This document shows positions 17,577 through 37,908 of a DNA stretch of 64,000 nucleotides, in pieces. A program made the translations under genes and the position numbers. The notes below the pieces were generated by a model, which ran no database searches, was not told the DNA's origin, and was given only the letters and a program-made list of their open reading frames with translations. Numbering within the stretch: position 1 is the first letter of the stretch; each line of letters begins with the position of its first letter. The stretch is from Escherichia coli (lineage in GTDB: Bacteria > Pseudomonadota > Gammaproteobacteria > Enterobacterales > Enterobacteriaceae): NCBI RefSeq assembly GCF_013122565.1, contig NZ_CP053258.1; one strand, written 5' to 3'.

Positions 17577-18722
17577 ATGAAAATCGTAATCGCCCCAGAC
17601 TCTTATAAAGAAAGTTTATCTGCCAGCGAGGTTGCGCAGGCGATAGAAAAAGGATTTCGGGAAATTTTTCCTGATGCACAGTACGTTTCTGTTCCTGTTG
17701 CCGACGGTGGCGAAGGAACGGTGGAAGCGATGATTGCAGCCACCCAGGGTTCCGAACGTCACGCCTGGGTTACAGGGCCGCTGGGCGAGAAAGTGAATGC
17801 CAGTTGGGGGATCTCCGGCGATGGCAAAACCGCGTTTATTGAAATGGCGGCGGCCAGTGGGCTGGAGCTGGTACCTGCGGAAAAACGCGATCCACTCGTG
17901 ACCACTTCACGCGGCACAGGCGAGTTAATCCTGCAGGCGCTGGAGAGCGGCGCGACAAACATTATTATCGGCATTGGCGGCAGCGCTACAAATGATGGCG
18001 GCGCAGGCATGGTACAGGCGCTGGGGGCGAAATTATGCGACGCCAACGGCAATGAAATTGGTTTTGGCGGCGGTAGTCTTAATACTCTGAATGATATTGA
18101 TATTTCCGGCCTCGATCCGCGCTTAAAAGATTGCGTCATTCGCGTCGCTTGTGATGTCACCAATCCGCTGGTGGGCGATAACGGCGCATCGCGCATCTTT
18201 GGCCCACAAAAGGGAGCCAGTGAAGCGATGATTGTTGAGCTGGACAATAACCTCTCTCACTATGCCGATGTCATTAAAAAAGCGCTGCAAGTTGATGTGA
18301 AAGATGTCCCCGGCGCAGGAGCTGCGGGTGGTATGGGCGCGGCGCTAATGGCGTTTCTTGGTGCGGAACTGAAAAGTGGTATTGAAATCGTCACTACGGC
18401 GCTGAATCTGGAGGAACATATTCACGATTGTACGCTGGTGATCACCGGTGAAGGGCGTATTGACAGCCAGAGTATTCACGGCAAGGTACCGATTGGTGTC
18501 GCAAACGTGGCGAAGAAGTACCATAAACCGGTGATTGGCATTGCGGGTAGCCTGACCGATGATGTTGGCGTTGTACATCAGCATGGCATTGATGCGGTCT
18601 TCAGCGTATTGACCAGCATAGGTACGTTGGACGAAGCATTCCGCGGGGCTTATGACAATATCTGCCGTGCTTCACGTAATATCGCCGCGACACTGGCGAT
18701 TGGAATGCGCAACGCGGGGTGA
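17577..18722 (+). CDS. garK: Glycerate 2-kinase (381 aa)
   Basis: ATG at 17577 (MKIVIAPDSYKESLSASEVAQAIEKGF...), glycerate kinase family, last gene of garPLRK. Confidence 0.88.
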   Translation: MKIVIAPDSYKESLSASEVAQAIEKGFREIFPDAQYVSVPVADGGEGTVEAMIAATQGSERHAWVTGPLGEKVNASWGISGDGKTAFIEMAAASGLELVPAEKRDPLVTTSRGTGELILQALESGATNIIIGIGGSATNDGGAGMVQALGAKLCDANGNEIGFGGGSLNTLNDIDISGLDPRLKDCVIRVACDVTNPLVGDNGASRIFGPQKGASEAMIVELDNNLSHYADVIKKALQVDVKDVPGAGAAGGMGAALMAFLGAELKSGIEIVTTALNLEEHIHDCTLVITGEGRIDSQSIHGKVPIGVANVAKKYHKPVIGIAGSLTDDVGVVHQHGIDAVFSVLTSIGTLDEAFRGAYDNICRASRNIAATLAIGMRNAG

Positions 18723-18747
18723 CAAGGGCGCGCAAACCCTCTATACT
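18719..18747 (+). promoter_or_regulatory. rnpB sigma70 promoter (-35 GTGACA, 17-nt spacer, -10 TATACT)
   Basis: GTGACA at 18719-18724 and TATACT at 18742-18747, 7 nt upstream of the M1 RNA 5' end. Overlaps the garK stop codon. Confidence 0.6.
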
Positions 18748-18754
18748 GCGCGCC

Positions 18755-19131
<377 letters not shown>

Positions 19132-19138
19132 GATTTAC

Positions 19139-19171
19139 GTAAAAACCCGCTTCGGCGGGTTTTTACTTTTG
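19139..19171 (+). terminator. rnpB rho-independent terminator
   Basis: AAAAACCCGCTTCGGCGGGTTTTTACTTTT hairpin with a T-tract. Confidence 0.8.
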
Positions 19172-19175
19172 GAAG

Positions 19176-19392
19176 GGGCAGAAAGATGAATGACTGTCCA
19201 CGACGCTATACCCAAAAGAAAGCGGCTTATCGGTCAGTTTCACCTGATGTAAGTAAAAACCCGCTTCGGCGGGTTTTTGCTTTTGGAGGGGCAGAAAGAT
19301 GAATGACTGTCCACGACACTATACCCAAAAGAAAGCGGCTTATCGGTCAGTTTCACCTGATGTACGTAATAAACCGTTCCGGCGGGTTTCAG
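19176..19392 (+). repeat. Two tandem ~113-bp direct repeats duplicating the rnpB 3' end and terminator
   Basis: GGCAGAAAGATGAATGACTGTCCACGAC...GGTCAGTTTCACCTGATGTA.GTAA.AACCCG.TTCGGCGGGTTT occurs twice after the genuine rnpB 3' end. Confidence 0.8.
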
Positions 19393-19413
19393 ATTGTTGA
19401 GTGCGCTTTATTC

Positions 19414-19513
19414 ATGCCGGATGCGGCGTGAACGCCTTATCCTGACTACAAAAGCACGCAAATTCAATATATTGCAGAGATGGCGTAGGCCTGATAAGCG
19501 TAGCGCATCAGGC
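19414..19513. repeat. REP/BIME element
   Basis: GCCGGATGCGGCGTGAACGCCTTATCC and AGGCCTGATAAGCGTAGCGCATCAGGC palindromic units. Confidence 0.75.
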
Positions 19514-19628
19514 ATTTTTGCGGTTGCCATCAGTTTCAAACCCGCATCGATAAGTTTTTGCTTTTGGTGCACAGGGTAAGATGAATATCTACGGTATTAA
19601 TAATAGACTTTGTAAGAAGTTATTAAGT

Positions 19629-37809: not shown

Positions 37810-37908
37810 GCCTGATGCGCTATGCTTTTCAGGCCTACGAGGTTTCTGCAATATATTGAATTTGCATGCTTTTGTAGGCCGGATAAGGCGTTCACGCCGC
37901 ATCCGGCA
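37810..37908. repeat. REP/BIME element
   Basis: GCCTGATGCGCTATGCTTTTCAGGC and GGCCGGATAAGGCGTTCACGCCGCATCCGGC. Confidence 0.75.

Follow-up and report, generated by a model that had tools for sequence, protein, structure and literature searches.

Tandem 113-bp repeats of the rnpB 3' end and terminator in Escherichia coli, most likely a near-neutral minisatellite

The rnpB Gene and Its Surroundings

The window, by which we mean the whole 64-kb stretch of E. coli DNA analyzed here, contains garK, rnpB on the plus strand, yhaC and yhaB on the opposite strand, and then the tdc operon, in this order. The rnpB gene is annotated by PGAP with an identical length of 377 nt in both K-12 and strain LA3. 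The gene, a promoter-like site upstream of it, and its convergent neighbor are located as follows:

18719-18747, plus strand: promoter-like site of rnpB, GTGACA, 17 nt, TATACT (10 of 12 matches), ending 8 nt upstream of the RNA start
18755-19131, plus strand: rnpB, RNase P RNA (M1 RNA), class A, full-length match to Rfam RF00010 (318.6 bits, E 1.7e-103)
19629-20815, minus strand: yhaC, convergent neighbor, split by a frameshift into two frames (88 and 87% identity to the halves of K-12 YhaC)

Since yhaC lies in two overlapping frames (237 and 171 aa), it is a frameshifted pseudogene in the window strain. In LA3, the closest relative, yhaC is also a pseudogene, in that case through an internal stop, and an IS1 adjoins. 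Elsewhere in the window, two above-threshold Rfam matches, naRNA4 (62700-62781, plus strand, 70.4 bits) and ES036 (37831-37873, minus strand, 39 bits), belong to REP-derived small RNA families that are ordinary for E. coli.

Anatomy of the Tandem Array

Tandem Repeats Finder reported a single array in the window, at 19109-19389, with a period of 113, 2.5 copies, 94% matches, no indels, and a score of 499, which confirms the tandem period of about 113 bp proposed in the initial annotation of this DNA. A repeat search of the window returned three 113-nt copies at spacings of 114 and 113 nt. Exact matches to the 20-mer GATGAATGACTGTCCACGAC start at 19083, 19185, and 19298 (spacings of 102 and 113 nt), those to the 26-mer CGGCTTATCGGTCAGTTTCACCTGAT start at 19109, 19223, and 19336, and three copies of a 23-nt core from the rnpB 3' end are present in the window vs. 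none in 100 shuffles. Given the regular period, the recurring exact anchors, and the three cores against none in shuffled sequence, the array is real and far beyond chance. Copy 1 is the true 3' end of the gene, because Rfam places rnpB at 18755-19131; the repeat, previously placed from 19132 onward, starts inside the gene, at 19083.

The alignment of the units and their anchors also bears out the derivation of the copies from the rnpB 3' end and its terminator. The module, duplicated head-to-tail, runs from the last 49 nt of rnpB through the 3' trailer and the intrinsic terminator to a spacer of 19-20 nt. The parts of the array, and the elements between it and its old distal end, are as follows:

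19083-19184, plus strand: unit 1 (102 nt), the last 49 nt of rnpB, 3' trailer, terminator T1, and spacer, without the 12-nt insert
19109-19131, plus strand: 23-nt rnpB 3' core (P1 3' strand), copy 1
19185-19297, plus strand: unit 2 (113 nt, complete), pseudo-3' end with insert, core, trailer, terminator T2, and spacer
19205-19216, plus strand: 12-nt insert GCTATACCCAAA of unit 2, found in distal copies only
19223-19245, plus strand: 23-nt core, copy 2
19298-19392, plus strand: unit 3, ending in a decayed terminator, without spacer
19318-19329, plus strand: 12-nt insert ACTATACCCAAA of unit 3
19336-19358, plus strand: 23-nt core, copy 3
19405-19547, no strand assigned: two REP (BIME-type) palindromic elements between unit 3 and the old array end, sub-threshold Rfam matches to the REP-derived families ES036 and naRNA4
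19520-19586, plus strand: old distal array end, with a decayed core GCGGTTGCCATCAGTTTCA, a decayed terminator, a spacer, and AGATGAAT

Over shared columns, copies 1 and 2 are 95% identical and copies 2 and 3 are 91.6% identical. The copies, at about 92-95% identity, do differ little, as had been described, but that description passed over a 12-nt insert and two substitutions. In copies 2 and 3, 12 extra bases follow CCACGAC and AGAACC is changed to AGAAAG, and together these changes remove most of the P4 3' strand from the distal copies. The distal copies are therefore pseudo-3' ends, and since the P4 strand is missing, they could not yield a functional alternative 3' end. The P2 and P1 3' strands are kept in every unit, and the trailer resembles that beside the mature 3' end of rnpB. 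According to work cited in PMC11251521, the mature 3' end of M1 RNA is produced by processing with the participation of RNase E. Of the initial interpretations, possible 3'-end heterogeneity of RNase P RNA is the weakest.

The short repeat AGATGAAT bounds the module on both sides. In the single-copy ST131 locus, it is present both within rnpB and past the spacer downstream of T1, and in every array among the loci examined, the sequence past the last unit continues to AGATGAAT and diverges only beyond it. Because an identical spacer follows the last unit of O157 and the sole unit of ST131, the region at 19520-19586 is assigned as the former distal end of the array. Within this region, a fourth, decayed terminator-plus-spacer (19538-19567) is 83% identical to the reference, as the fourth member of the family, with a local alignment score of 49 vs. 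17.4 +/- 3.2 for shuffles. The two REP elements are absent at the same spot in O157 and ST131 and are therefore younger than the array. The insert with its effect on the P4 strand, the remnant beyond the REP elements, and the AGATGAAT boundaries are all additions to the initial annotation. As to the very first duplication, the microhomology would fit either a slipped or illegitimate event or later deletions.

Terminators of the Array

Each of the three units carries a terminator hairpin or what is left of one:

19139-19166, plus strand: T1, extended hairpin (GC core CCCGC-UUCG-GCGGG) followed by U5 (-18.3 kcal/mol, z -5.4)
19253-19280, plus strand: T2, intact hairpin followed by U5 (-18.2 kcal/mol, z -5.1)
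19374-19385, plus strand: remains of T3, a 4-bp stem without U tract, GGGTTTCAG (-4.4 kcal/mol)

T1 and T2 each have a GC-rich hairpin directly before a U tract, as expected of an intrinsic (Rho-independent) terminator, whereas T3 does not, and its fold is at the level of shuffled sequence (matched or bettered by 174 of 200 shuffles). The idea of several consecutive terminators accordingly holds for T1 and T2 but not for T3, with its lack of a U tract and its shuffle-level fold, and the weakening of the hairpin in the third copy had been noted correctly (-4.4 vs. -18.3 kcal/mol). Judging from the predicted folds, T3 does not appear credible as a terminator and probably no longer works in the window strain. 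A consensus terminator scan detected neither T1 nor T2; under its rule, the U tract was probably consumed by the A-U extension of the stem, and the hairpins were folded instead. Two terminator types, with a short and a long loop, are found in E. coli arrays and can be mixed inside one array. The name rnpB T1 is in use, and this terminator is among those measured in PMC3643576.

Copy Number and Recombination within E. coli

Across 5,426 complete E. coli genomes, a one-unit query found between 1 and 9 matching places in each (median 2), where nine is a number of places from the query match only and the largest count read directly at a locus is seven. At least one full insert-bearing unit is present in 3,659 of the 5,426 genomes. 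Among 60 genomes sampled at even intervals, one, two, three, four, and five copies were found in 19, 14, 9, 15, and 3 genomes, respectively, and the single-copy state is thus that of about a third of E. coli genomes. Units were counted in individually read loci, as a nine-unit synthetic query gave joined places that were hard to interpret. The loci read in this way gave the following counts:

1 copy: ST131
2 copies: O157:H7
3 copies: the window strain and LA3
4 copies: K-12
5 copies: C21
6 copies: Stbl4
7 copies: TL012

The comparison of strains that had been suggested as a check therefore does reveal differing copy numbers, with 19 of the 60 sampled genomes in the single-copy state. The K-12 array is orthologous to that of the window, with the same units between garK-rnpB and yhaC; relative to K-12, the array of the window strain is shorter by one full unit and has an additional A in its first spacer. 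Head-to-tail units whose number varies among strains of one species are what defines a minisatellite (variable-number tandem repeat), and the array has both properties. A literature search found no variable-number typing based on the 113-bp unit.

The order of unit variants within the arrays points to recombination between units. The block pattern is 1-a-b-L in K-12 and 1-a-b-x-a-b-L in TL012, where x combines an insert of b or L with the trailer of copy 1; such a hybrid is the product expected of unequal exchange. Stbl4 has the pattern 1-a-a-a-a-L, yet its YhaC and GarK protein accessions are the same as those of K-12. Overall, the block patterns match unequal homologous recombination between misaligned units, and the potential for recombination that was initially ascribed to the repeats is borne out by these traces of unequal crossing-over and by copy numbers of one to at least seven among E. 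coli strains.

Insertions of IS1 are found in or just past the array in three loci, namely that of E. coli LR-48 (L130) and two others (L002 and L125). In LR-48, the second unit is interrupted by IS1 immediately behind GATGAATGACTGTCCACGAC; this strain has also lost yhaC.

Distribution beyond E. coli

The sample of species came from the matches listed in a scan with a 33-mer, and it is small and without Klebsiella, Yersinia, Serratia, and Proteus; it is also arbitrary, since the chosen 33-mer is conserved across many Proteobacteria, far beyond Enterobacterales. Among the matches listed, extra copies follow rnpB in 12 of the 34 assessable Enterobacterales species loci. The array-bearing taxa are Escherichia (E. 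coli and E. albertii), Citrobacter, Enterobacter, Cedecea, the Enterobacteriaceae isolate RIT691, Pantoea, Erwinia, Pectobacterium, and Brenneria. By comparison, none of about 84 loci from other orders of Proteobacteria among the matches listed has extra copies, two weak short matches aside. A Salmonella contig carries two copies and S. houtenae carries one.

An insert of the same kind is present at the same place in the distal copies of nine genera, Escherichia and eight others, which span three families (Enterobacteriaceae, Erwiniaceae, and Pectobacteriaceae); the Brenneria remnant is too short for its insert to be judged. The inserts align across taxa with a mean column identity of 85%, and the terminator and spacer of the copies match each species' own rnpB type.

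A 2.5-kb sequence labelled "Salmonella phage S.Kent 1-2-1" (L123, OR851195.1) starts in the rnpB 3' end and continues with a match to the S. houtenae chromosome downstream of rnpB, and it looks like host DNA rather than phage. A phage origin of the array was considered and rejected, as a phage search with the array matched only misfiled bacterial contigs. A phage search with the junction sequence of the elements described below gave no match.

Islets Integrated at rnpB

From loci whose rnpB has no terminator directly after it, we traced a conserved junction, beginning TCTTCTAAAACAATACGTTGG, that is joined to the rnpB 3' end in 34 of the 5,426 E. coli genomes. In strain YZ22PE67 (L133, 19647-27790), the junction is followed by genes for a 468-aa tyrosine integrase, a primase-helicase, and other proteins, and the last 20 nt of rnpB (CTTATCGGTCAGTTTCACCT) form an attL/attR direct repeat, the far copy of which lies directly before the remaining repeat units. 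The islet of CFSAN061761 (L134, 15647-25210) encodes a 486-aa integrase, 56% identical to that of YZ22PE67, together with flagellin and a flagellin repressor. It is apparently the published flk islet of E. coli, which is excised through its direct repeats by the tyrosine recombinase Orf486 (PMC3378880). Both islets show the direct-repeat arrangement of att sites, with target 3' ends flanking an integrase element, and this arrangement is absent from the window.

The tip of rnpB in CFSAN061761 (L134, 16005-16030) reads GGTCAGCTTCAACT rather than the GGTCAGTTTCACCT of E. coli, and this is the version found in Enterobacter (L107); the islet therefore appears to have swapped in its own 3' tip. The native tip is found at the far end of the islet.

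A conserved junction sequence about 65 nt long (TCTTCYAAAACAATACGTTGGTGTGTC...TGGGATACACCAACGG) folds into a long hairpin; in Budvicia, Erwinia, Enterobacter, and Cedecea, the stem is preserved even though bases have changed. This junction lies directly after rnpB in four loci (L107, L061, L053, and L035) and after a distal repeat copy in two (L098, from about 4589, and L010, from about 1539). It contains repeated motifs resembling TGGGATACA, which the E. coli islets also carry in their other arm, and this sequence probably represents an integrase-binding arm and the upstream region of the integrase. The junction has been found on a distal copy only in Cedecea and Enterobacter sp. Bisph1; an apparent match of this kind in strain 042 proved to be only an L-type trailer.

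In three taxa, toxin genes rather than an integrase lie beside the junction (L010, 1713-3278; L098, 4900-6907; and L107, downstream of rnpB). Pfam identifies PAAR and S-type pyocin domains in L010 and L098 and a colicin-type cytotoxic domain in Cedecea, and the genes of L107 resemble the toxin genes of L010 and L098 as compared by eye only. These loci look like decayed islets with retained toxin cargo.

Comparison with Known Systems

We take the array to be the 113-bp repeat of Reed and Altman (1983). The likeness comprises the same locus, the 113-bp unit, a content of M1 RNA end plus terminator, and small reading frames, and the repeats in the window do adjoin the 3' end of rnpB, which the first copy overlaps (from 19083). 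Roughly three and a half copies were reportedly described by Reed and Altman in E. coli, and the four anchors in K-12 fit this number. To their array, the present analysis adds the copy range in the population, the AGATGAAT boundaries, the decayed fourth remnant, and nine other genera.

A close parallel is the tyrT operon, whose repeat units, of about 178 bp, yield the rtT RNA, which is a documented processed RNA, and the Tpr protein. We know of no processed RNA from the rnpB repeats. In both cases, tandem repeats follow a stable-RNA gene, and each repeat carries the 3' end of that RNA and small basic frames. The two differ in that the tyrT units are longer, whereas a complete intrinsic terminator closes every rnpB unit. 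The locus of the tyrT repeats is described in bioRxiv 10.1101/2024.07.17.603846.

The direct repeats made by integrases, as in tRNA and tmRNA islands and the flk islet, are similar in that the duplication takes in the extreme 3' end of a small-RNA gene, the part that these integrases target. By contrast, the copies in the window are separated only by terminator and spacer, the whole unit is periodic, and there is no integrase. Finally, the tandem intrinsic terminators T1-T2 of rrnB also place two strong hairpin-plus-U-tract terminators in series after a highly expressed stable-RNA gene. T2 of rnpB differs in being a copy of T1 that arose through the duplication of a larger module, and in varying in number by strain.

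Origin and Possible Roles of the Array

Most likely, and in our view with good probability, the array represents the long-known 113-bp repeats 3' of E. coli rnpB, i.e., a module duplicated head-to-tail that is close to neutral. The first duplication would be old, with one event underlying the arrays across genera, and concerted evolution would keep the units like rnpB's own 3' end and terminator. That the array is dispensable is indicated by the single copy in a third of genomes and by the decay of the last terminator in K-12-type arrays. The only likely effect would be that transcripts escaping T1 meet T2 before they reach the convergent yhaC, a role that presumes read-through at T1 and use of T2. 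Against near-neutrality, the survival of the array in three families exceeds what would be expected of a neutral array with a hardly reversible single-copy state, and some weak selection, e.g., for back-up termination, is conceivable.

It is possible, although unlikely, that the array as a whole is selected as a stack of back-up terminators, insulating the convergent yhaC-tdc region from the strongly transcribed rnpB. T1 and T2 match each other in hairpin strength and both have a U tract, the neighbor on the downstream side is convergent, the arrangement is kept in several genera with every unit bearing a good terminator of its own species' type, and rnpB T1 already has a name in the terminator literature. 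However, about a third of E. coli genomes, ST131 included, have a single terminator, the distal terminator has decayed in both the window and K-12, and the pseudo-3' end need not be copied if terminators alone mattered, while recent duplication and homogenization would explain the intact internal hairpins equally well. Very unlikely, in our judgment, is a role at the RNA level, in which unit-length RNAs cut from read-through transcripts would mimic the M1 3' end and act as a decoy for processing enzymes or the C5 protein. The anatomy does parallel the tyrT locus, where repeats after an RNA gene give rise to the rtT RNA and the small Tpr protein, and the units keep the P2 and P1 3' strands and an rnpB-like trailer. 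Yet no promoter-like site was found within the array, so that any unit RNA would depend on leakage through a strong terminator, and one third of strains lack distal units altogether. No support was seen for a structured RNA of the array's own: in Rfam 15, the region 19132-19400 has no match at the gathering score, and a permissive threshold gives only terminator-like tails of unrelated sRNA models. A conserved hairpin in the insert was likewise rejected, with 65% of cells paired, no both-side (compensatory) changes, and shuffles performing as well.

It is extremely improbable that the units are kept for small basic peptides, which would start at the ATG of GATGAATGAC, with GGAGG upstream and the stop overlapping the next start (ATGA). 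Small reading frames were reportedly noted by Reed and Altman in 1983, with the original suggestion of small basic peptides. Frames of 38 aa (MNDCPRRYTQKKAAYRSVSPDVSKNPLRRVFAFGGAER) and 33 aa are open in the window, the frame is open in units of Escherichia, Citrobacter, and RIT691, and K-12-type products of 38 aa are listed in NCBI as "hypothetical protein." However, only nine codons of the frame precede a stop in Enterobacter Ag1, Cedecea, Enterobacter Bisph1, Pectobacterium, and Pantoea IMH, its ATG is missing in Erwinia persicina and Pantoea Mb-10, and it is frameshifted in E. albertii and in the second copy of RIT691. The C-terminal halves are translated terminator hairpin and differ wholly between terminator types, the differences in the insert are mostly amino-acid changing (by inspection), and an open frame of 38 codons would arise in about 16% of cases by chance in random sequence, as an arithmetic estimate. 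Nor does PGAP call any gene inside the array. A conserved peptide was rejected on account of the differing frames or nine-codon stops outside the Escherichia-Citrobacter group, and the array is in all probability not protein-coding. An origin in integrative elements, with the copies as leftover att sites or as decoy attB sites that spare the gene, is also very improbable, even though an intact 23-nt core is present in every unit, 34 E. coli genomes carry a tyrosine-integrase islet joined to this core, the YZ22PE67 islet has the last 20 nt of rnpB as a direct repeat at its far end, and a junction of this kind is attached to an insert-bearing distal copy in the Cedecea and Enterobacter sp. Bisph1 loci. 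No integrase is present in the window, its three cores are all inside the array, within 250 nt, and tandem duplication explains the periodicity of the whole unit more simply. Islet remnants were rejected on the ground that the DNA between the cores, from the trailer through terminator and spacer to the pseudo-3' end, bears no evident resemblance, by inspection, to either islet arm, and decoy sites in E. coli are not supported, as the true rnpB copy is occupied by 34 of 34 islets even though distal copies are present in most of their host genomes. For these two reasons, the array is neither an islet remnant nor a demonstrated decoy.

A broader form of these ideas would make the array an old Enterobacterales module kept by selection, either as a core-and-terminator buffer that absorbs recombination and integrases or as the source of an rtT-like RNA. 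We regard this as quite unlikely, although some room for it is left by the 12-nt insert, common to nine genera in three families, and by the junction of an integrase-type element on distal copies in Cedecea and Enterobacter sp. Bisph1. If the array did shield an essential RNA gene from integrases, or did feed a decoy RNA, it would be a neat case of repeat DNA serving a housekeeping gene.

To return to the near-neutral minisatellite, the array itself was already known, and it is a real feature, correctly described and, in its broad lines, correctly interpreted at first reading, that probably has little functional weight. What may be new is the occurrence of this type of array across three enterobacterial families, always with the P4-disabling insert, and the E. 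coli copy range of one to at least seven. As a fast-changing length marker, the array can confuse assembly and primer design near rnpB, and constructs that reuse "rnpB T1" lift one unit out of its repeated context. In mapping of the M1 RNA 3' end, the identical trailers and terminators that recur every 113 nt need to be heeded.
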